Below the pieces are notes generated by a model. The model did no database searches, was not told where the DNA came from, and worked only from the letters and a program-made list of their open reading frames with translations. Of a stretch of 64,000 bases of DNA, positions 3,591 to 50,347 are shown one piece after another. Numbering within the stretch: position 1 is the first letter of the stretch; each line of letters starts with the position of its first letter. The stretch is taken from positions 2,144,001 through 2,208,000 of the forward strand of contig CM000153.2 in assembly GCA_000004695.1 (NCBI GenBank). The letters run 5' to 3'. The stretch comes from Dictyostelium discoideum (Eukaryota). The position numbers and the translations under genes are program-made.

Positions 3591-4221
3591 GACTTTTATT
3601 TGGTTTTTTTTTTTTTTTTTATATTTTTTTTATCTTAACCTAAAAATAATTTCTTATTTTTTTATATTTTGATTGTTTTTTTTTTTTTTTTTTTTTTTAA
3701 GACTATTAATACAAGGTTTTTTTTTTTTTTTTCCAAAATTTCAATTTATTTCCAGATTAAAAAAAAACAGAAAAAATATAAAAAAAAAAATTAAAAAAAA
3801 TGAAATCTTTTTTTTTTTATACACGGTTGTTATGTGTCATATATTTATTTATTACTACACAAGAAAAAAAAAAGAAAAAAGAAAAAAAAAAAAGTAAAAA
3901 TTTTTTTTTTTTGAAAATTTTTTTTTTTTTTTAGATTGGGAGCAAAATACACTCACAAAAACCGGTTGTTTTTTTGATGGTGCGATGAAATCGATGAAAA
4001 TATTAAATATTTAGAATTTTTTTATTTTTTTAATTTTTTTTTATTTTTTTTATTTTTTTTAATGGTGCTATTTTTTTAGGTTTTTTATTTTTTTTTTATT
4101 CTCCCCTTCTTTATCTTTTTCCCTTATTTTTTATTTTTTCTAAATTTTTTAAATTTCTATAACCTTTTTTTTTCCTTTCCTTTTTTTTTTTTTTTTTTTG
4201 GTTTATAATAAAAGGTTGGTC

Positions 4222-12283: not shown

Positions 12284-13054
12284 TCTTATCATTTGACAAA
12301 AATCTAATTTGTTTTTTTTTTTTAATTTTTTTTTTTTTTTTTTTTTTCATTTTTTTGTTAAAATCCAAAATTTTTCGCAGAAATATTTAATAATAATCCT
12401 GGGTGTATAGTTTTAAGACAAATTAAATTAGAATCAAACATTTAATTATATATTTTCTATTTGATTCAAAGTTATTTCCATTTGTATGTGGAAAACTTTT
12501 CGTTTGCCAAATTTTACTTTTTGGATCAACTAATTAGTTTCACCGAAAAGAAAAAAAAATTCATTCCAAAAAAAATTAAAAAAAAATAAAATAAAATAAA
12601 AAAATAAAAATAAAAAAAAAACCCCTTTTGAATAAAAAAAAAATATTTTTGACTCTATTTTTGGTTTGAAAGATTCGACAAAATGCTATAAAAAAAAAAA
12701 AAAATTAAAAAAAAAAAATTTAAAAAAATTTGACTTTTTTTTTTTTAAGCGCTATAAAAAAATATCTCGCTTTCAAATAATTATTCTTATTTAAATTTTT
12801 TTTTTCTATTTTTTTGGGTTGAAGTTATAATAATCCTGACATCATTTTTTGAAAGTGTGTATAACCAAAAAACCTACAGCCCTTCAGTTTTTTTAGTTTT
12901 TTTCTAAATTTTTTTTTTTTTCACCAAAAAATTTTTTTTTTTTATTATTTTTTTTTTTTTTTTTTTTTTTAAAATTTTCAGTTAGTTTTTTTTTTTTTTT
13001 ATTAAATTTTTTTTTTTTTTTTTTTTTTTAGATTTATTAATAAAAAGGTAAGCG

Positions 13055-13085
<31 letters not shown>

Positions 13086-13108
13086 CAAAAATAAAAACAT
13101 CAGTTTTT

Positions 13109-13154
<46 letters not shown>

Positions 13155-13326
13155 CATCTTCTTCAACAAATATCAAACTATTTATATTTCTAAAGTATTA
13201 TTAGTTTTTTTTTTTTTTTTCTTTTTTTTTATTTTTTTTTTTTTCATAATTTGTTTTAAAAAAGATAAAAAAAGAAATAATAATAATAATAAGAATAAAT
13301 AAATATAAAATAAAAAATATATATAT

Positions 13327-13386
<60 letters not shown>

Positions 13387-14023
13387 AAAAAAGAAATAAA
13401 ATCTGTACTCTCGACTTGCAACAATACCATCATGGTGATTCGGTTTTTTTTTTATTAATTTTTTTTTCTTGTTAACCAAGAACAAAAAAAAAAAAAAAAA
13501 AAATTAATGGGCATTCTTAGGAAAAAAATGGGCATTCTTAAAAACAAAAGAACAATTGCTTTTTTTTTTAAATTCACCAACCACAGCGCTTTGGAAATCA
13601 AATTGGCTTTATTTTTAAAAATTATCTTTAAAATTTTTTTTCTTCTATTTTTTTTATTTTATAATAATAAGAATAATCAATCAGTCCATTTTTTTTTTTT
13701 TTTTTTTTTTTCTTTCTTTTTTTTCTTATATTTTATTTATATTTTATTTATTTATTTATAATAATCACAAAATAACCCAAATAGAGATTTTATATTAAAA
13801 TATAGTATCATACAATTGTATAATTATAATAAAACCAAATATTTTAATATTTCGCGATACACTTTTTAATATTTATTTGAAATACATGTCAGTTTTATCT
13901 TTTTTTTTTAAAAATCACCACACACTTTCATTTTGTAAAATTAAAACAATAATATTATTAATAATAATAATAATAATAATAAACCACACCACATTAAATA
14001 ATATAATATCTGATTCACCCACA

Positions 14024-18418: not shown

Positions 18419-18831
18419 CACACATTTTCAAATTTCACAGACAATTTTAGATTTTTTTTTTTTTTTTTTTAAATTTTTTAAATTATTTTTAGCAAAAAAT
18501 AATTAAAAATCCAACACAAAAAAAAAAAAAAAAAATAATATTTTTGTAATACCCCACACCATTTCCTTACATAGATATAAAATTTTTTAAAAAAATTAAT
18601 TTCGATCTTTCAATCTTAAAGATTACCGATGTATTTATATGTACTATCACTATTTTTTATTTTTAATTTTTGTATTATAGAAAAGTGGATTTTTTTTTTT
18701 TTTTTATATGCAGCAGTCAACCATCTAAAATAAAAAAAAATAAAAATAAAAATAAATAATTAAATAAAAAAATGAATTATTATAATAATTTTTTTAAAAA
18801 AAAAGATAATTTACATTTGTTCTATTTTGAC

Positions 18832-18864
<33 letters not shown>

Positions 18865-19224
18865 ATAAAATAAAATAAAATAAATTTTTTTTTTTTTTTT
18901 TCTTAAATATTATCTTCTTATTCGCCATAATACCTCATTAATTGAGACCTACTTTTCAAAGACATAAAATTATTTCTATTATTTTTTGTTTTTTTTTTTT
19001 TTTTTAAACAAAACATAAAAAAAAAAAAAAAAAAAAATAAATTATTACCAAATTTTGCACACACAAAAAAAAAAAAAAAATAAAAAACAAAAAAAAATAA
19101 AAAAAAATAAAAAATAAATATATATAATATGCAAAGTTATATATAGCACATTGACCATTCCCTCAGGTTGTAAATTTATTTTTATTTTCAAAATTAATTT
19201 TTTTTTTTATACACACACTAAAGA

Positions 19225-19315
19225 AATCAAACCCACTTAAATCACATACACAAAACAAACCAATCCCACTTGAATCAATTACACTAAACAAATCAATCCC
19301 ACTTCACAAAAAATT
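19225..19315 (+). promoter_or_regulatory. Three direct copies of an AATCCCACTT-containing ~30 bp A/C-rich motif, about 1 kb upstream of the membrane-protein gene; candidate promoter or 5'-leader element
   Basis: aaatcaaacccacttaaatca / caaaccaatcccacttgaatca / caaatcaatcccacttcacaaaa. The A+C-rich composition is atypical of the surrounding A/T homopolymer intergenic DNA. Confidence 0.3.
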
Positions 19316-19328
19316 AAATTATTTCTTC

Positions 19329-19366
<38 letters not shown>

Positions 19367-20267
19367 ATACCTTATAAATAATAAATTTTTTTTTTTTTAT
19401 TTGTTATTAATTCCAACAATACTATTAATAATTTAATAAAAATAAACAATCAATCAACAATTGGATATTACAAATAATAATAATAATAATAAAAAAATAA
19501 AAATAAATAATTAAACACACAAAAAAAAAAAAAAAAAAAAATAATAATATTTTATATTCACAATTTTTTATATATATTTTTTTTTACCCATTTTACATTC
19601 TATTTAATTTTATTTAAATATTTCCAAATCCACTTCTTTTATTATTATTTTTTATTTTTTTAATTTTTCTTTTCAAATTTAATTATTTAATTAATCATTT
19701 TTATTCTCGGTTTCTACAATTGTTTAGAAACGAATTAAAGAGAATAAAAAACATAACATAGCGTCTAATACAAATAATACTCTTTTAACTAGTAGTAGTA
19801 GTAGTAGTGATAGTGATTCTGACCACGCCGATGAAGACAAATTAGAAGAACAGGATATTGATAATAATAATAATAATAATAATAACAATAATAATATAGA
19901 AGAAAATAAACCACCAGATTTAAATCAAAGTAGTAATAGTGATAGTGATAGTGAAGAATTAGAAACAACATTACAACCACCAACACCACCGCCACCTTAT
20001 TCAGAAGTTGAAAATAATATAGAACCACCACCATTACAAATTAGTTCAAGTGAAACTGACTCGCCAACACATTCATTAGATAGTAGTGACAATAATAGTA
20101 TTGTTGGTTCTGATATAAATAATAAAAGTGATAAAGAAGAAAAATCACCAACTCTTGCTAATAATAATAATAATAATAATAATATAGATAATAATAATAA
20201 AGATAATAGTCAAGATAATAATAAAGATAATAATAATCAAGTTAGTAAACCAATAACAGAGATTGAA

Positions 20268-22028
20268 ATGAGTAGTTTTAGATCAAATCAAAGTGTTAGT
20301 CTTTTACATGATAGACAAAATAAAACATGGCTTTCAACAATTAAGAATCAATTGATACCAACATCAGGTGATGTTAATGCAGTATTTTCAGTGGTATTGG
20401 ATAATTTGGCAAATATAGCATCATTGGTTGGTATTTTACAAGGTGCCTATGGAATGCCAATTGATCTTGTAACAAAGTATTTTATAGCGGGTCCGGCATT
20501 GGCTGTTATGATTGGTAGTATAGCATTGTCGTGTTATGCCATCTATTTGGATTATCATGAAAAGGATCCATCTGTACATTATACTGCAATTCCAGTGGGT
20601 TTAGACGCACCATCAACTATTGGGTTACCTTTGTTAGTGATTGGTCCGGCTTATGCATTGGCAATAAAGAATGGTAGTTCCATACCGGATGCTACAAATA
20701 GTGCTTGGTTAGTTGGTTGCACAACCGTGTTTTTAATTGGCGCATTCAAGGTGTTACTAACGTTGATGAGTTTTGCACAGAAGCAATTCCATCCAGTGGG
20801 CAAAGCCGGCGCATTGGCAGGCATAGGTTTGGCATTGTTAGGCATGAATGAATTGTTAACCGTCGTTGAAGAGCCTGTAGTTGGTTGGGTGTCACTTTGG
20901 ATACTTTTGTTGATACTAATTCACAGACAGAATAAACATGGTGAAACGGTTGGAATTTCATTGCCATTCAATTTGTCGGGTGTTTTACTCTCTGCTTTGG
21001 TGGGTTCCGCAATCTATTATTTCATGGCAGGTGTACATATTTCCGTGGACCCAATGCCAAGTGGTGTCACTGATAACTACGAATTGACCTATCCACATCC
21101 ATCAAATATTTTCAAATCGTTCGCTGATGCAATTAAACAAAATATCTCCATTGCTATACCATATGCCATCCTTGTGAATATCGGGTCATTGACAATCACT
21201 GATAGTGCAAATAATGTCGGTAATGCATACAATACACGTTGGGTATTATTGATTGATTCATTTTCAACAATCATTGGTAGTTTCTTTGGAAGTACAGTTC
21301 AAACCACACCATACATTGGTCATACAGTTTTCCATACTAATTTTAAAGCACGTTCTGGTTATTCCTTAATTAGTGGTTTAATCATTGGTTTGGGTGGTTT
21401 CTTTGGTTATCTTGGTTTCCTCACTAAAATCTTACCAAAGCCAGCAATCATACCAATTTTCATTTTCATTGCATTTGAAATTTGTTCAGACACTTTCCAC
21501 AATACTAAAGGTATTAAACCACATCATTGCGCTGCTGTGGTTTGGAGTTTCTTCCCATCGTTATTCCAATTTTGTAATATTTACATTAGTCAAATCTCAC
21601 CAGTTTTATCAAATTGTATCACTGATCCAAATTCAGTGGCTACTACATTAGGTTTACAACCATCTTTAATTCAATCACTTGGTAATATAATGATAATGGC
21701 TCATGGTTTCATTTGTACTTCTTTGTTTTGGGGTACTTCTTTAGCTTATATTTTGGATAATCGTTTGAAGAAAGCTTCAATATTTTTAGCAATAACTGGT
21801 GTCTTAACTTTCTTTGGTGTCATTCATTCTGTCAATCCAAATGGTGAGGTTTATTTACCTTGGAATTGTGGTTCAACAATTCCTTATCAATGGACTGCTG
21901 CTTACTTTTTAATTGCTGCTATCACTTTTGCTTTCTCTTTCATTAAAGCAAAACCATTTCATTCAACTTTAACTGATGAAATTGGTGCAATTCAAGCTAA
22001 TGATAATTTTTATTCAAAATCATTTTAA
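20268..22028 (+). CDS. Polytopic membrane protein (about 12-14 predicted TM helices), putative permease/transporter of uncertain family; 586 aa from ATG 20268. The same frame is open upstream to 19728.
   Basis: Long ORF in the track with many hydrophobic stretches (LIGAFKVLLTLMSF, GIGLALLGMNELL, ISGLIIGLGGFFGYLGF, and others). Codon usage is unusually GC-rich for this genome (ccg, tcg, gcc, ggc and ttg are frequent; the body is roughly 40-45% GC). A Ser/Asp/Asn/Pro-rich in-frame extension with AT-rich codons precedes the ATG. Confidence 0.6.
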   Translation: MSSFRSNQSVSLLHDRQNKTWLSTIKNQLIPTSGDVNAVFSVVLDNLANIASLVGILQGAYGMPIDLVTKYFIAGPALAVMIGSIALSCYAIYLDYHEKDPSVHYTAIPVGLDAPSTIGLPLLVIGPAYALAIKNGSSIPDATNSAWLVGCTTVFLIGAFKVLLTLMSFAQKQFHPVGKAGALAGIGLALLGMNELLTVVEEPVVGWVSLWILLLILIHRQNKHGETVGISLPFNLSGVLLSALVGSAIYYFMAGVHISVDPMPSGVTDNYELTYPHPSNIFKSFADAIKQNISIAIPYAILVNIGSLTITDSANNVGNAYNTRWVLLIDSFSTIIGSFFGSTVQTTPYIGHTVFHTNFKARSGYSLISGLIIGLGGFFGYLGFLTKILPKPAIIPIFIFIAFEICSDTFHNTKGIKPHHCAAVVWSFFPSLFQFCNIYISQISPVLSNCITDPNSVATTLGLQPSLIQSLGNIMIMAHGFICTSLFWGTSLAYILDNRLKKASIFLAITGVLTFFGVIHSVNPNGEVYLPWNCGSTIPYQWTAAYFLIAAITFAFSFIKAKPFHSTLTDEIGAIQANDNFYSKSF

Positions 22029-23099: not shown

Positions 23100-23102
<3 letters not shown>

Positions 23103-25656
23103 TTAAGATTTAATTTTAAACATTTAATATTTTTTATTTCAACAATTTTAGTATTTTTATTATCATTTATTTTATCAAATTATATAAAAGCATTGTTATT
23201 ATCATCATTTGATATTGATGTTTATTCAAAATATATTAAATCACCGAATCAATCAATGATTAGTTATTTTAGAATTAAAGAAAATGCTGACTCATTTCAA
23301 TCAGACTCAAATGATGGTATTATAAAGAGTACAATTGATGAAGTTCAATTAAAAAATCAAATTGAGAATTATCAAGATAAAAATTTTCAATTAAAAAGTT
23401 TTTTAGTTAAAAATCAATTTTTTATAATATTTTTAATTTTACAAAGTATTTTATCAGTCATTTTAATACCAAATCTTTATTTCACCCCTTTTACTTTAAA
23501 TGTACTTGTAAATAGATTTACATTTGAATTTCTTCAACATCAATATATTATTTTAACCAAAATTAGATTATTTGAATATTATGGTATTTATTCTCAAAAT
23601 AGATTATTGGATGATCTATCATTATCATTTAGAAAGAAACAAAAAGCTTTATTAAAAAAGAATTTAAATTTCTTAAAATCATTTAAAAGTAAAGTTTTTA
23701 AAGATTTGGAAAAGAGAAAAGAAAATTCAATGCAAAATTGGATTACTTATACAACACTAGAATGGTTTTTAACTACATCCTCATTTGGTTATGATTTAAT
23801 GATTTACATTTATCCATTATTCATTTATAATCCTTTAATTTATCCAACTAATCAATTTAGAGGTTGTATTGTTGCTTATGTTAAAACATTAACAATTATA
23901 CAAAGAGTAAATATATAAATATTTTTTGAAATTTTATTTATATTTATATGTATTAAAATTTTTTTATTTTTTTTTATTTTTTTTAGTTATCAACAGAATC
24001 AGAAATTAAAGATTATATTAAAAGAATCCAACATTCTGTAGAATATATTGATGGTTGTATAATTGATTTAAAAAAGAGAGAGAAAAAAGGAGTTTTACCA
24101 TGTGTTGATTCAATTATTGGAATTTGTAAACATTTAGAAAAAACAATTTATTGTGATAAAAGTAATCCAAAAAATCATTTTATTTATAAATTAGTATCTG
24201 TACATCTCCAAGGTTTACCAGATGAAGATATTGGTGAATATAAAAGAAAAGTACTCTTAGATCATACTTTAGGTGCAATTGTTAATTTTTTTATGCCTGC
24301 AATTAGAAAACTAATAAGATATCATTACAGTTTAATTCCAATTGCTCCAAAAGAAATAGGTGTAAGTTTTTATTTTATATTCTATTTAATATTATTTATA
24401 ATATTAATTGCTAACAATAATATATTATTAAAATTAATTAAAATTGAATAAAAAAAGTTATGGAGAATACCAAATGGTGATGATATTTATAGATTTCATA
24501 TTTATTATTTTACATCAACAACAATGCATCCAATGGATTTACAAGAATTAGGTTTAAAAGAAATTGAATCTTGTAAAAAGAAAATAATTGAATTGGTACA
24601 ACCAGAGTATATTTTTTGTAAAGGTTATGAAAGTTTTGGTGATTTTATTAGAAGATTATTTAATGATCCTGAATTTCATTTCTCTTTCACAAAAAAGGGA
24701 AGAAGAGATGCAGTACATCAATTAAAAAATTCAATTACAAGAGCATGGGAAAAAAGTAAAGATTTATTTTATGAATATCCTGAAAGTCCAATTAATATAG
24801 ATTATTATACAATTTTCTCTGATGTTTCATATAATTATCAAGCTGGTCCATGGGATGGTGTAAATATTTTAATTAATTTTATTTTATTTTATTTTTAAAT
24901 ATAAAATATACTAATTAATTAATTTATATATGTAGAGTGAAAATCCAAGAATTTCAATTAATTTCGATAGAGAAATTACTTATTCAAAATTAATGAATAA
25001 AGGTTGTGCATTTAGAGAAGGTGTACCAGGTCATCATTTACAATTAGAAGCATTTAAAAATTCAAATTTAGATTTCTTTAGAAAAAATTTGGTATGTAAT
25101 AATATAATTTTAATTTAAATTAAAAACATTATTTATTATTTATTGTTTTTTTTTTTATATAAATATTTAGATTTCAAATTCATTTTTTAATGGATGGGGA
25201 TTATATGCAGAATTATTAACAATTGAAAATGGTTGGATGGATAATAAATGGGAAGTGTTGGGACATTATTTAATGGATTTAAGAATTAGTGCAAAATTAG
25301 TAGCAGATTGTTCAATTCATTACCAAGGTATTAAATGGGATACAAAAACTGCATGTTCATTTTTTGAAGAATTAGGTTTTAGCAATAGAGAAGCAGAATT
25401 AGAAGTAAAATGTATATCATCATTACCAGGAACTGGATTATCACAAAAAGTAGGTCAAGTTAAACTTTTAGAAATGAGAGAATTTGCAGAACAAGAATTG
25501 GGTGATAAATTTGATATTAAAGAGTTTCATAGTGTAATTTTAGAGAATGGTTCTCTACCTTTAGATATTTTGGCACAAGTTAATCAATATTGGATAATTG
25601 AAAAAAAACAAAATAATAATCCATTCCCTTCATTATTTAAAAATAAAACTAATATT

Positions 25657-25729
<73 letters not shown>

Positions 25730-25809
25730 TTAATAATAATAGTGGCAGTAGTGGAAGTAGTGGAAGTAATGTTAAACCCGAAAAATATGAAAGTTATAAA
25801 GATAAATAA
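23100..25809 (+). CDS. DUF885-family protein (bacterial-type, putative secreted/membrane metallopeptidase-like); 5 exons: 23100-23906, 23987-24361, 24458-24859, 24936-25091, 25171-25809; ~792 aa
   Basis: The exon 4/5 translation contains the DUF885 hallmark motifs GCAFREGVPGHHLQLEAF and FFNGWGLYAELL. The N-terminus has a hydrophobic signal/anchor (LIFFISTILVFLLSFIL). Donors are GTAAAT, GTAAGT, GTAAAT and GTATGT, acceptors are all AG, and frames are conserved. The C-terminus has a poly-N/GSS tail. Confidence 0.7.
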
Positions 25810-38110: not shown

Positions 38111-39756
38111 TTATTTAAAATTTTAGAGCATCAGGACATGTTGCAAAATTTGCAGATTTTATGGTTAAAGATGAAGTCACAAAAGCATTTTTTAGAGCAG
38201 ATCATATTTTAGAAGCACATATTCAAACATTATTAAAGGATACAAGTAAAATGAGTAAAGAACAAATTGAAGAATTAAATTTTGTATTGGCTAAAGCAGG
38301 TGATTACAATCAAGAACAATTGAAAGAATCATTGATCAAATATAATGTTAAAGCACCAGAGACTGGTAATGCATTAACAGAACCATATCCATTCAATTTA
38401 ATGTTCCAAACTCAAATTGGACCATCAGGTTTATCAACTGGTTACCTTCGTCCAGAGACAGCACAAGGTATTTTCACCAATTTCGGTAAACTCTATGAGT
38501 ATAATGGTAAAAAGTTACCATTTGCCGCCGCACAAATTGGTAATGCCTTTAGAAATGAAATTGCACCACGTGCTGGTTTACTTCGTGTAAGAGAGTTTAC
38601 AATGGCCGAGATTGAGCATTTCGTCAATCCAAACAATAAAACTCACCCAAAATTCAATGAGATCAAAGATGTTGAAGCTAATCTCCTTTCATCAGATTCT
38701 CAAGATAAAACTAGTGAAATCCAAGTTTGCACCTTTGGTGAAGCCGTCGAAAAGAAACTCATTGACAATGAGACACTCGCTTACTTTATGGCTCGTACTC
38801 AACAATTCCTTCACACCGTTGGTATCAAACCAGCTGGTCTTCGTTTCAGACAACATCAAAAGAATGAAATGGCTCATTATGCTCAAGATTGTTGGGATGC
38901 TGAAATCCTCTCTTCCTATGGTTGGGTTGAATGTGTAGGTCATGCCGATCGTTCATGTTATGATCTTAAAGTTCATGCCACTGAATCCAAATCAAATCTC
39001 TCTGCCTACGAGGAATTCAAAGAACCACAATTTGTTGACATTGCAAAGGTTGTCGTTAATCCAGGTGCAATCTCAAAGAAACATAGAGCTGCCGTTTCAC
39101 CAATTAAGAAATACTTGACCGAACTCAAAGATGATCTCGCCAAAGCATTGGAAATCCAAGAAACAATCACCAAGGATGGCTCATACAATTTAGTGTTGGA
39201 TGGTAATACCTACGATATCACCGCCGATATGGTCACCATTAGTAAAGCTCAAGAAAAGAAGAATGGTCATACCTTCTTCCCACATGTCATTGAACCATCA
39301 TTTGGTTTGGGTCGTATCATTTACTCAATTCTCGAACAAAACTATTACACCAGAGAAAATGATGAACAAAGAGGTGTACTCTCTTTACCAGCTATCATCG
39401 CTCCAGTTAAAGCCTCTATCCTTCCTTTAACCTCTTCCGATCGTATCGCTCCATTTGTTCAAACCATTTCAAAGGCACTCAAAGAAGCAAACATCTCAAC
39501 TAAAGTTGATGACACTGGTAATGCCATTGGTAGAAAATACGCTCGTACCGATGAAATTGGTGTTCCATTTGGTGTCACCATCGATTTCCAAACTGTTGAA
39601 GATAACACTGTCACTCTTCGTGAACGTGATACCACTAAACAAGTTCGTATTCCAATCTCTGAATTAGCATCAACTCTTAGAAAACTTTGTGATTTAACTG
39701 TTAGTTGGTCTGATATTTTAAAAACTTTCCCAATTTATGAAGGTCAATCAGAATAA
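37613..39756 (+). CDS. glyS: Glycyl-tRNA synthetase (class II, eukaryotic GARS-type); 2 exons: 37613-38022 and 38127-39756; ~679 aa from the first ATG. A second ATG ([16 protein letters not shown]) suggests a shorter cytosolic isoform.
   Basis: Near-colinear identity with human [44 protein letters not shown] aligns with [164 protein letters not shown] and [19 protein letters not shown] also match. The codon bias is that of a highly expressed gene (C-ending codons). The intron donor is the non-canonical GTTTGT. Confidence 0.9.
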
Positions 39757-45320: not shown

Positions 45321-49096
<3,776 letters not shown>

Positions 49097-49635
49097 TGTG
49101 TGGCGATTTATATTTTGTGGTTTTTTTATTTTTTTTTTAATTGGTTGTAATGATGATGTTATTTAATTCGAATTGGGTCAATGATATTTTTAAATTTAAA
49201 TTATTTTCTTTTTAAATTTATATTATTTTTATAACCTTTTTAACTATTATTTATATTTATATTATTAAATTTAATTTTAAATTTTTTTTGTTTTTTTTTT
49301 TTTTTTATAATTATTGAGGTTCAATTTATATGATAATATGTTTTGAAAACAAAAAAAAAAAAATAAAAAAAAATTTATTAACCTAAATTTTAAAAAAAAA
49401 ATAAAAAAATAAATAAATAATTAATTTAATAATTAGTACTGGTTTTTTTTTATTTTTTATTGTTTGAACTACAATGAATGTAAGACGATATTTGAAAAAA
49501 AAAAAAAAAAAAATAAAAAAAATAAAAATTTTTACTTTAAAAAGTGATGGTTTTGGAAAATAAAAATAAAAAAAAAATAAAAATTGAAAAAAAAATTTGA
49601 ACTTACTTTGTACAAGACCGATGATTGTTTAATAG

Positions 49636-49701
<66 letters not shown>

Positions 49702-50158
49702 GTTGTTTTTTTTTTTTCTCTCTCTCTTTTTAAATTATTTCTATACCAAAAAAAAAAAAAAAAAAAAAAGAATAAAAAAATAAAAAAAAGAATAAAAATT
49801 AAAAATATAAAATTATAAAATTTTTTTTTTTTTTTTTCTAATATAAAAATAAAAATAAATGTTAGTAAGAGAATCTTTTTTTTTTTTTTTAAAGAAAAAA
49901 AAAATAAATGAATGAAAACAGAAAAAATAATAATAGGTTAAAAAGAAAAATTTTAAAAGAAAAAAAAAAAAAAAAAAAAAAAAATACAATTATGTGATTT
50001 TAAACTACCAAACAAAGTTTAATTTTTCCAAATTAGGTATTTTTGATAGTAATAAATTTTTAAACGTTATTGATATTTTTTAAAATACACTAAACAAAAT
50101 AAATAAAAAAAATTATAAAAAAAAAAAAATAAATAATTATTGAATGTTAATAGAAAAA

Positions 50159-50190
<32 letters not shown>

Positions 50191-50347
50191 AAAAAAACCA
50201 CCCACAATTATGATAGAAGTCTTCGAATAATTACATGTGAAAAACAATGAAACTGTGAATTAAAATATTTTATTATTTTTTTTTTTTTTAAAGTGCAAAA
50301 AAGATGACGATAAACTATAAAGCAATATAATTGTGAGTGAAGAAGAG

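Follow-up and report, generated by a model that had tools for sequence, protein, structure and literature searches.

The transporter gene encoded at positions 20268–22028 of the window, the 64-kb stretch of Dictyostelium discoideum AX4 chromosome 4 analysed here, is DDB_G0284579, which is already annotated, native and long resident in Dictyostelium. The explanation that we consider probable combines this long residence with an ancient transfer of the gene from bacteria, an excess of G-ending codons acquired late, and a leader upstream of the start codon that would be both scanned and translated. An earlier reading from the sequence only had seen a fairly recent bacterial gene that kept the GC-rich codons of its donor and to which an N-terminal exon of native type was joined afterwards; in light of the evidence below, this is very improbable. 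The features discussed are collected in Table 1.

Table 1. Positions of the features of the DDB_G0284579 locus in the window.
Feature	Positions	Strand	Description
ATGCAAA, exon 1 of the public model	19129..19135	+	Donor GTTATA; 5-codon uORF if unspliced
Conserved non-coding element CATTTTTATTCTCGGTTTC	19696..19714	+	Just upstream of the frame start; candidate promoter/TSS element or 3' part of an intron
In-frame TAG opening the frame	19725..19727	+	AG is the acceptor proposed by the sequence-only reading; same acceptor in the D. citrinum annotation
N-terminal extension	19728..20267	+	180 in-frame codons, Ser/Asn/Asp/Pro-rich; no in-frame ATG and nearly no out-of-frame ATG
Conserved AGAGAATAAAAA box	19739..19750	+	Conserved in five species; contains the acceptor of the public model, AAAG/AG at 19740/19741
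Conserved in-frame ATA followed by G	19758..19761	+	Candidate near-cognate start or phase-1 3' splice site (ATAG/)
Sole ATG in 19132–20267	19831..19845	+	Out of frame; 4-codon mini-ORF ATG AAG ACA AAT TAG
PPPY (PPxY-type motif) in the extension	19989..20000	+	PPLY at the same place in D. citrinum; putative function
Core ORF	20268..22028	+	586 aa plus stop; predicted 14-TM transporter with a 7+7 inverted-repeat fold; conserved part of DDB_G0284579
G-ending-codon segment	20340..21002	+	Core residues 25–245, first 7-TM repeat; from change-point fit and codon tables

The length of 586 aa for the core ORF and the further 180 stop-free codons upstream to 19728, which contain no ATG in frame, agree with the sequence-only reading, and the sequence strings it quoted are present. 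The extension and the core form a single uninterrupted open frame in one continuous exon, which argues against a separate N-terminal exon fused to the core. The proposed 5' exon was not unrecognised either, because the public model of 764 aa includes the extension and already joins ATGCAAA to it. No exact match to the 586-aa product was found in assemblies, the identifiers of DDB_G0284579 and of its paralogue DDB_G0279759 were not found in the searchable literature, and Rfam and tRNA scans across the window gave no match. The paralogue has a GC3 of 0.10 and two introns of a typical type, with lengths of 96 and 189 nt and donors GTGAGT and GTAAAT.

The AlphaFold model of the core (pLDDT of 89.6) has 14 TM segments, in line with the approximately 12–14 helices that had been counted from the sequence. 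The helices are arranged as two inverted repeats of seven TM each, TM3 and TM10 are the sites of half-helices and short strands, and the whole corresponds to the SLC4/SLC23/SLC26 group ("UraA fold"). The model thus points to a secondary transporter of the UraA/SLC26 7+7 TM fold, the N-terminus of which is presumably cytosolic. Searches of Pfam, NCBIfam and PDB sequences with the single protein and with a profile of 49 sequences matched no family. PF00860 (Xan_ur_permease, NCS2/NAT) gave no match at E ≤ 1 for the protein and none at E ≤ 0.1 among the 49 homologues, and PF00916 and STAS matched neither the protein nor the homologues. MFS_MOT1 gave only a weak match in 8 of the 49 homologues, with a best E of 0.0018. 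The tail after the last helix of the model is about 30 residues long and therefore too short for a STAS domain. The assignment to NCS2/AzgA, offered as a possibility by the sequence-only reading, could not be demonstrated, since there were no HMM matches, AZG2 was only the 15th-ranked structural neighbour of the core model, and no sequence-level relatedness to characterised AzgA, AZG or PbuG proteins was found. Membership in SulP/SLC26 was rejected because of the missing PF00916 and STAS matches. Nearly all other members of the family to which the transporter belongs, itself uncharacterised, are bacterial. The family has neither a Pfam model nor an assigned substrate despite hundreds of bacterial members, and a tractable amoeba carrying two paralogues could help to find its function.

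The protein searches scored the 8000 best word-sharing candidates drawn from a database containing both EukProt and NCBI sequences. The earlier description of a multi-pass permease of a bacterial-type family is supported. Hundreds of bacterial proteins were found at 32–45% identity; of the 920 proteins at E ≤ 1e-60, nearly all were bacterial among the matches listed. The eukaryotic homologues among the matches listed were those of dictyostelids and three further sequences, at least two of which are eukaryotic, one being a poly-A mRNA contig and another lying on a contig with Ank and LYR genes. Among the matches listed, only bacteria stand outside this small eukaryote clade, so that the distribution is patchy in eukaryotes and broad in bacteria. 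Orthologues occur in all sampled dictyostelid genera (Dictyostelium, Heterostelium, Acytostelium and Cavenderia). All eukaryotic sequences form one clade, the bipartition being recovered in 100 of 100 NJ bootstrap replicates, and any transfer from bacteria therefore predates the dictyostelid radiation. The NJ tree is unrooted apart from midpoint rooting, and in it the eukaryotes stand as a sister group beside the bacteria sampled instead of inside them; the argument for the direction of transfer is therefore drawn solely from the patchy occurrence in eukaryotes. Most likely, a single ancient transfer brought the family from bacteria into an amoebozoan ancestor before the dictyostelids radiated, and a later duplication would have given DDB_G0279759.

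The reciprocal monophyly of eukaryotes and bacteria in the same unrooted tree, and the presence of the family in at least two further eukaryotic lineages, would also be expected if there was no transfer and an ancient family was inherited vertically and lost from most eukaryotes. We consider this rather improbable, because no other named eukaryote was found among the matches listed against those 920 mostly bacterial proteins, and because P0015, a eukaryote sequence of normal GC, is nearly as close to Gemmatimonadota (44–45% identity) as to dictyostelids (42–50%). A DUF885 gene adjoins the transporter in the window as well as in D. citrinum and D. purpureum, and this synteny, like the two introns of the paralogue, speaks for a long residence in dictyostelids. 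Co-transfer with this neighbour is unsupported, as DUF885 was not beside the transporter in the bacterial loci examined. A protein search with the downstream neighbour, aimed at more close relatives, gave no match.

The codon usage that had been read as foreign is confined to a part of the core. A change-point fit gives a G3 of 0.21 inside 20340–21002 and 0.043 outside (2dLL = 46). Over 20268–21017, third-position G/(A+G) is 0.36, compared with 0.09 in 15 pooled ORFs of the window (Fisher p = 3e-16), and in the 5' 300 codons (20268–21167) the shares of TTG among Leu, GTG among Val, AAG among Lys and CCG among Pro codons are 51%, 35%, 55% and 18%, respectively. The 3' part of the core ORF has only an ordinary mild C-ending bias. 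The claim of unusual codons holds for G-ending codons within this segment, where G3 is exceptional, and does not extend to the whole ORF, whose GC3 of 0.26 equals that of the tRNA-synthetase gene at 38119–39753.

The values of G/(A+G) for residues 25–245 and for the rest were 0.39 and 0.15 in D. discoideum, 0.33 and 0.17 in D. citrinum, 0.16 and 0.10 in D. purpureum, 0.16 and 0.17 in the P0002 species, and 0.07 and 0.07 in the paralogue. The contrast recurs in the P0006 species (p = 2e-4) and does not reach significance in D. purpureum, the P0002 species, Heterostelium or Cavenderia. The dS relative to D. citrinum is 0.70 in 20340–21002 and 0.41 in the remaining core. A donor codon signature was rejected because the bias is limited to residues 25–245, where dS is raised, and because neither D. 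purpureum nor the P0002 species nor the paralogue has it. The G-ending codons of this segment are a derived feature and not a relic of the donor. The excess would have arisen much later than the transfer, in or near the discoideum/citrinum lineage, by some local process.

The two observations that speak for a recent transfer are that bacterial proteins are the only relatives outside the small eukaryote clade and that the codons in 20340–21002 are very unusual for this genome. Against it stand the orthologues in the sampled dictyostelid genera, the syntenic D. purpureum locus without the G3 excess, and the paralogue with its two introns and low GC3. The G3 excess is restricted to one segment, in which silent change is faster and not slower, the protein shows no mosaic, and the extension lies in the same continuous exon as the core. 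Odd codon usage by itself is a poor sign of recent transfer.

Several local causes of the excess were also rejected. Foreign replacement of the 5' half is contradicted by identities to all relatives that are equal in both halves of the protein. An RNA structure or an overlapping conserved element is not indicated, as folding energies after synonymous shuffling gave z values from −0.7 to +1.7 and silent sites diverge fastest in this segment. Next-base context does not account for G3, which is raised before all four bases, nor does a codon bias of high expression, because the tRNA-synthetase gene of the window has the usual bias towards C-ending codons. GC-biased gene conversion is disfavoured because G is increased far more than C and because a genome-wide study found no evidence of it in D. 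discoideum (PMC8321536).

It is unlikely that the segment is kept by selection, for example by rare codons slowing translation while the first 7-TM repeat inserts. This would fit with the boundaries of residues 25–245, which coincide with the first structural repeat, and with the contrast in the P0006 species. It would also fit with the share of TTG among Leu codons, which is 100/264 in residues 25–245 and 43/198 elsewhere in seven pooled orthologues, and with the few TTG/GTG sites common to at least four orthologues; in Cavenderia the TTG excess is negligible, and in the P0002 species it is small. It fits poorly with silent divergence that is highest in this very segment, with the contrast that is not significant in four of the lineages named above and absent from the paralogue, and with the missing RNA-structure signal.

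The extension contains 0, 11 and 74 stops in frames 0, +1 and +2, respectively, and its dN/dS between D. discoideum and D. citrinum is 0.32. The frame is open in five species with no in-frame ATG, and changes in length have therefore preserved the frame; no open frame precedes the core in Heterostelium, Cavenderia or the paralogue. Judged by these signatures, the extension is coding. The AT-rich N-terminal part, described earlier as native in type, is a lineage-specific eukaryotic addition without an ATG of its own.

The extension also shows the properties of an mRNA leader. In D. discoideum, one out-of-frame ATG was observed in the extension where 9.4 were expected (P < 3e-4). The observed and expected numbers in the four species with avoidance are 1 and 9.4, 1 and 7.2, 0 and 4.6, and 0 and 2.6; in D. 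purpureum ATG is not avoided (7 observed, 4.6 expected). Ten control coding regions gave observed/expected ratios of 0.37–1.21, nine of them at 0.8–1.2, and the other ATG-less leading parts of ORFs in the window gave 35/29.9, 7/6.9 and 13/8.7. The avoidance is also visible at synonymous sites, by way of AAC and CAC before G-starting codons, and holds there in three independent lineages: for Asn, Asp, His and Tyr before a G-starting codon, the rare C-ending codon was used at 6 of 7 independent extension sites, compared with 13 of 230 in controls. The single out-of-frame ATG of D. citrinum lies at the same GAT-GAA (Asp-Glu) junction as that of D. discoideum. The stretch upstream, 19132–19727, also lacks ATG but has only 2.5% G, and the absence there is not significant (P = 0.08). 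Cavenderia retains ATTGAAATG despite having no extension, which indicates, together with the lack of an upstream frame in Heterostelium, Cavenderia and the paralogue, that ATG 20268 is ancestral. That ATG is so strongly avoided in the extension suggests a start-codon function for ATG 20268 itself, and the extension resembles an mRNA leader which ribosomes both scan and translate.

Around the frame start, CATTTTTATTCTCGGTTTC has the same sequence in D. citrinum and D. purpureum, can still be recognised in two more species, and has one exact copy in the window. D. citrinum and D. purpureum conserve the TAG site together with about 60 nt upstream of it. The sequence-only reading had taken the polypyrimidine-AG at this point for an acceptor; the tract does exist, but the AG is partly trivial because it ends the in-frame stop. 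Two other species have an in-frame TAA downstream of the corresponding site, which therefore cannot be the acceptor there. In two species the AGAGAATAAAAA box is read in a different frame and contains the in-frame TAA. The acceptor of the public model within this box was deduced from the N-terminus of P0001, MQKNKKHN. In all five species with the extension, the ATA at 19758–19760 is preceded by A or G at −3 and followed by G at +4; where the frame opens three codons before the ATA, as it does in two species, no near-cognate codon comes earlier.

Upstream, ATGCAAA sits in a block at about 19120–19185 that is conserved with D. citrinum. The ATGCAAAG block of the window has no counterpart in D. 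purpureum, ATGAACATT of the D. citrinum model has none in the window, and the P0002 species has no ATG in 383 nt upstream; a first exon common to all species was thus looked for and not found. In D. purpureum, a plausible mini-exon (ATG/GTTATA...TAG/AAA) lies 112 nt upstream, and, as ATG is not avoided in this species, an ordinary spliced start is possible there.

We propose that, in the group-4 species, the 5' leader above the ancestral ATG 20268 became an in-frame, stop-free and AUG-free reading frame. Ribosomes would scan this leader to ATG 20268 and produce the 586-aa protein, and the leader would also be translated, adding an acidic, low-complexity cytosolic tail to a longer isoform. The tail may be translated by initiation at the conserved AUA (19758–19760) in its good context, or from an alternative transcript in which a tiny ATG exon is spliced onto the extension. 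The first variant, in which one mRNA gives two isoforms, most ribosomes scanning the leader of about 500 nt and a fraction starting at the AUA to add a 170-residue acidic tail with the PPxY motif, is advanced tentatively.

The second variant, two transcripts, is held with equal reserve. A distal promoter and splicing would give the long protein, and a proximal promoter near 19696–19714 would make the extension the AUG-free 5' UTR of ATG 20268. This would account for the coding signature and the purge of ATG together, and for the strong conservation of the element of about 65 nt at the frame start. The difficulties are that no consistent phase-matched ATG exon can be drawn for all five species and that a 5' UTR of 540 nt is very long by Dictyostelium standards.

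A plain two-exon gene is somewhat less probable than either variant. The tiny ATG exon at 19129–19135 would be followed by an intron of about 600 nt, the extension would always be translated, ATG 20268 would be merely an internal Met, and the avoidance of ATG would be a by-product of the low-complexity amino-acid pattern. ATG-less open stretches in this genome are normally just downstream exons and ATG-less leading exons are common, which is consistent with this structure, as are the conservation of the ATGCAAAGTTATA block in D. citrinum, the phase-1 acceptors at 19740 and 19761, and the lack of ATG avoidance in D. purpureum. The donor GTTATA and an intron of 605–626 nt are atypical beside the introns of the paralogue, three annotations give three different first exons, and the 383 nt upstream in the P0002 species contain no ATG. 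The synonymous-site avoidance in three independent lineages, which is absent from comparable exons, also argues against it.

If the variant with initiation at the AUA is real, Dictyostelium would have a conserved N-terminal extension with a non-AUG start that arose when a 5' UTR became coding on a gene of bacterial ancestry; a search of the literature on non-AUG translation initiation gave no paper with Dictyostelium as a subject in title or abstract, and no such case from this organism. An AUG-purged yet translated leader would let alternative start-codon use in Dictyostelium be tested concretely and at low cost, and the features used to recognise it can be applied genome-wide.

The gene can be compared with several known systems. 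The closest known systems include NCS2/NAT (UraA, UapA and SVCT1) and AzgA-like purine permeases (AZG2). The SLC26/SulP proteins (SLC26Dg, BicA and prestin) differ from the DDB_G0284579 product, which has identities of 11–14% to them, no PF00916 match and no STAS domain. The 2005 Dictyostelium genome paper is said to list candidate gene transfers from bacteria to Dictyostelium; DDB_G0284579 shares with these candidates a bacterial-type family, a patchy distribution in eukaryotes and full adaptation to the host, with introns in the paralogue. It is an example of a bacterial-type transporter turned into a normal eukaryotic gene, with host codon usage, a duplication, introns in the paralogue and a lineage-specific cytosolic tail.

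AUA is among the weakest near-cognate codons. AUA is documented as a near-cognate initiator by Ivanov et al. 2011 (PMC3105428), who describe conserved non-AUG-initiated N-terminal extensions, and PTEN-beta initiates from AUU (PMC5376652). As in such extensions, the region above the annotated AUG is conserved, in frame, stop-free and AUG-free. Constraint at the protein level is indicated by the dN/dS between D. discoideum and D. citrinum and by a frame open in both despite length differences, and a conserved near-cognate codon lies in a favourable context, the same four bases of which could also be a 3' splice site; the likeness is here seen at the level of sequence. DDB_G0284579 differs from them in its candidate initiator, the weak AUA, and in the out-of-frame purge of AUG, which is found in four of the five species and not in D. 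purpureum.

The window belongs to chromosome 4 of D. discoideum AX4. The 586-aa product of ORF 20268-22028 (+), the conserved transporter core, matches the last 586 residues of DDB_G0284579 (XP_638507 = Q54PG7; 764 aa) at 100% identity; this gene is already known and annotated as hypothetical. The frame opens at 19728, immediately 3' of the stop TAG at 19725-19727, and continues for 180 codons without an ATG. What the sequence-only reading had observed in the DNA is real. The 5' exon that it called unrecognised is, however, already in the public model, where a predicted exon ATGCAAA (19129-19135) is joined to an acceptor at 19740/19741, with ~605 nt between them, as deduced from the N-terminus MQKNKKHN.

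The extension (19728-20267) is protein-coding. No stop interrupts its frame (the other two contain 11 and 74), and its dN/dS relative to D. citrinum is 0.32. The D. discoideum and D. citrinum extensions differ in length and are both open, which indicates that indels kept the frame. Five species have an open stretch without ATG ahead of the conserved Met, with lengths of 180 codons (D. discoideum), 182 (D. citrinum), 88 (D. purpureum), and 127 and 55 (two further dictyostelids, the P0002 and P0006 species, respectively), and no equivalent stretch was found in Heterostelium, Cavenderia or the paralogue DDB_G0279759. Because Cavenderia, which has no extension, retains ATTGAAATG at its start, ATG 20268 is probably the ancestral start codon.

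An unexpected feature is that ATG is avoided in the other two frames of the extension too. The out-of-frame ATGs numbered 1 in D. discoideum (9.4 expected, P <3e-4), 1 in D. citrinum (7.2, P = 0.001), 0 in the P0002 species (4.6, P = 0.003) and 0 in the P0006 species (2.6, P = 0.04), where the expected counts were obtained from shuffles with homopolymer runs kept intact. In ten control coding regions the ratio of observed to expected ATGs lay between 0.37 and 1.21, and in nine of the ten between 0.8 and 1.2. Among other ATG-less leading exon parts, three showed no depletion (35/29.9, 7/6.9 and 13/8.7, observed/expected); the sole depleted control was the ATG-less leading 102 codons of the open frame at 23987-24448 (+), with 3 out-of-frame ATGs against 7.9 expected (P = 0.016). 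The avoidance acts at synonymous sites too: for Asn, Asp, His or Tyr before a G-starting codon, the rare C-ending codon was used at 6 of 7 independent extension sites, against only 13 of 230 sites in the controls. Only D. purpureum departs from this pattern: its extension has 7 out-of-frame ATGs, each at a T-ending junction. Because ATG avoidance is expected only where scanning ribosomes must cross, the depletion implies that, in four of the five species, initiation takes place at ATG 20268, even though this upstream sequence is itself translated. The presumably cytosolic extension carries PPPY, a motif of the PPxY type through which a WW-domain ubiquitin ligase could be recruited. Across the whole window, the ATG-free runs of greatest length are 49096-50236 (-), 1140 nt, and 12683-13432 (+), 749 nt.

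At the frame start, a ~65-nt element, TTTTTATTCTCGGTTTC ... TAG ... AGAGAATAAAAA ... ATAG, is conserved across the five species and has a single copy in the window. The AGAGAATAA box falls in another frame in the P0002 and P0006 species and supplies an in-frame TAA, so that the acceptors equivalent to 19727 and 19740 are unusable there. The acceptor at 19727, proposed from the sequence at the outset, is adopted by the D. citrinum model and fails in these two species; 19740 is that of the public model. D. purpureum has a neat predicted arrangement, ATG/GTTATA ... TAG/AAA with a 112-nt intron, a start that would fit its missing ATG avoidance; one consistent ATG exon could not be drawn across all five species, and a plain two-exon model of DDB_G0284579 is considered unlikely. 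Of these sites, the conserved ATA-G (19758-19761) alone follows the stop in each species. With A or G at -3 and G at +4 in all five, and no earlier near-cognate codon in two of them, it could be a near-cognate AUA start or, equally, a phase-1 3' splice site. We rather favour a leader with a dual use: the extension would be translated and ATG 20268 would also be used; within this model, a non-AUG start and an alternative transcript are each a tentative possibility. These estimates overlap and are not intended to sum to 1.

The frame start follows ~570 nt after the conserved block at 19120-19185, whose ATGCAAAGTTATA(T/A)ATAG is a 5-codon mini-ORF that doubles as exon 1 in the public model; no counterpart was found in D. 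purpureum. The three spaced copies downstream of the block loosely resemble the upstream sequence element that small-RNA genes have in Dictyostelium, and no Rfam RNA genes were found within the window. The 310-nt block lies within an unusually long (~2.7 kb) intergenic gap and has a conserved ATGTATTTATAT, then GTA.

Features of the transporter locus and of the sequences compared with it
Feature	Coordinates	Strand	Description
Non-coding block, 310 nt	18516-18827		77% identical to D. citrinum
Block conserved with D. citrinum	19120-19185		ATGCAAAGTTATA(T/A)ATAG, then conserved CTCAGGTTGTA
Three spaced (A/T)(A/C)CCCACTT copies	19228-19305		in C-rich, G-poor stretch
PPPY motif in extension	19989-20000		PPLY in D. 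citrinum
DUF885 gene, directly downstream of transporter	23100-25806	+	Pfam DUF885, E = 4e-34
Class II aminoacyl-tRNA synthetase ORF	38119-39753	+	tRNA-synt_2b + HGTP_anticodon
T-rich 96-nt intron of paralogue	L003 (D. cf. discoideum locus) 3895-3990		sister-strain model

The bacterial-style codons of the core had been taken as a mark of transfer. The whole-gene GC3 of 0.26 is high for the window, yet equal to that of the tRNA-synthetase gene, whose bias is of the C-ending type and illustrates the ordinary, expression-linked codon usage within the window. What is exceptional is G3 in 20340-21002 (core residues 25-245), as delimited by a two-boundary likelihood fit (0.21 inside, 0.043 outside, 2dLL = 46). 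G/(A+G) at third positions was 0.36 over 20268-21017 against 0.09 in the pooled window ORFs (p = 3e-16), and TTG, GTG, AAG, CCG, ACG, TCG and CAG were each several-fold over-used in the 5' 300 codons; the 3' part of the core and the synthetase gene show the usual C-ending bias only. This G3-rich segment corresponds to the first 7-TM repeat.

The G3 excess is common to D. discoideum and D. citrinum (87% DNA identity), the P0006 species has the same contrast (p = 2e-4), and in Heterostelium and Cavenderia the trend falls short of significance. It is absent from D. purpureum, the P0002 species and the paralogue, which rejects a donor relic; being local as well, the excess is no mark of transfer. 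Nor is the segment foreign, because the protein identities to all relatives are equal in both halves. A hidden conserved element was rejected, as dS relative to D. citrinum is highest there (0.70, against 0.41 in the remaining core and 0.35 in the extension) and no excess RNA structure was found in the segment. Biased gene conversion is unlikely, since the G-over-C asymmetry speaks against it and a published genome-wide study gave a negative result (PMC8321536). As to the cause, a mutational bias at the locus and selection in favour of slow codons are both weak guesses. The segment and the AUG-purged, apparently translated leader are worth follow-up.

Dictyostelid relatives (Dictyostelium, Heterostelium, Acytostelium, Cavenderia) are 62-71% identical, the paralogue ~65%, three sequences outside the named dictyostelids 45-48%, and hundreds of bacterial proteins (Elusimicrobia, Syntrophales, Xanthomonadales, Phycisphaerae, Gemmatimonadota) 31-36%. 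Two of these three sequences are eukaryotic, because P0015 is on 1.9-kb contigs bearing a poly-A tail and P0017 shares its contig with ankyrin and Complex1_LYR genes; no other named eukaryotes were among the matches listed. In unrooted NJ trees, a single clade holds all eukaryotes, with the bipartition in 100 of 100 bootstrap replicates. The most economical reading would be a single ancient transfer from bacteria. That the gene is old in dictyostelids is certain, since synteny with the DUF885 gene is kept in D. citrinum and D. purpureum and the paralogue has two ordinary introns (189 and 96 nt). The AX4 model of the paralogue (P0122) keeps 19 residues where the sister-strain model removes the 96-nt intron, and probably reads through it.

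Pfam describes DUF885 with the words 'bacterial protein of unknown function', so that two bacterial-type genes are adjacent; the pairing was absent from the bacterial loci examined. The 2005 genome paper reportedly counted DUF885 as a candidate for transfer. A protein search with the 272-aa ORF 23100-23915 at the DUF885 gene start gave nothing at E<=1e-20, including D. discoideum's own protein, and this missing self-match could reflect composition filtering or a different real exon structure.

Among sequence models, the 586-aa product matched none in Pfam or NCBIfam, and phmmer gave no match to PDB sequences; a profile from 49 homologues found no solved relative either, and 8 of the 49 had a weak MFS_MOT1 match and nothing else. 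The AlphaFold2 model from the 49-homologue alignment was confident (pLDDT 89.6, pTM 0.87) and has 14 TM segments, in agreement with the ~12-14 helices anticipated, together with short strands (residues 110-112 and 346-348). Neighbours at the bacterial loci examined, which include TauE, short-chain dehydrogenases and a two-component system, gave no substrate clue. The transporter family is mainly bacterial and uncharacterised, and has been carried by dictyostelids for a very long time; the predicted structure places DDB_G0284579 in a separate, uncharacterised branch of the 7+7-helix transporter superfamily, without the STAS domain.
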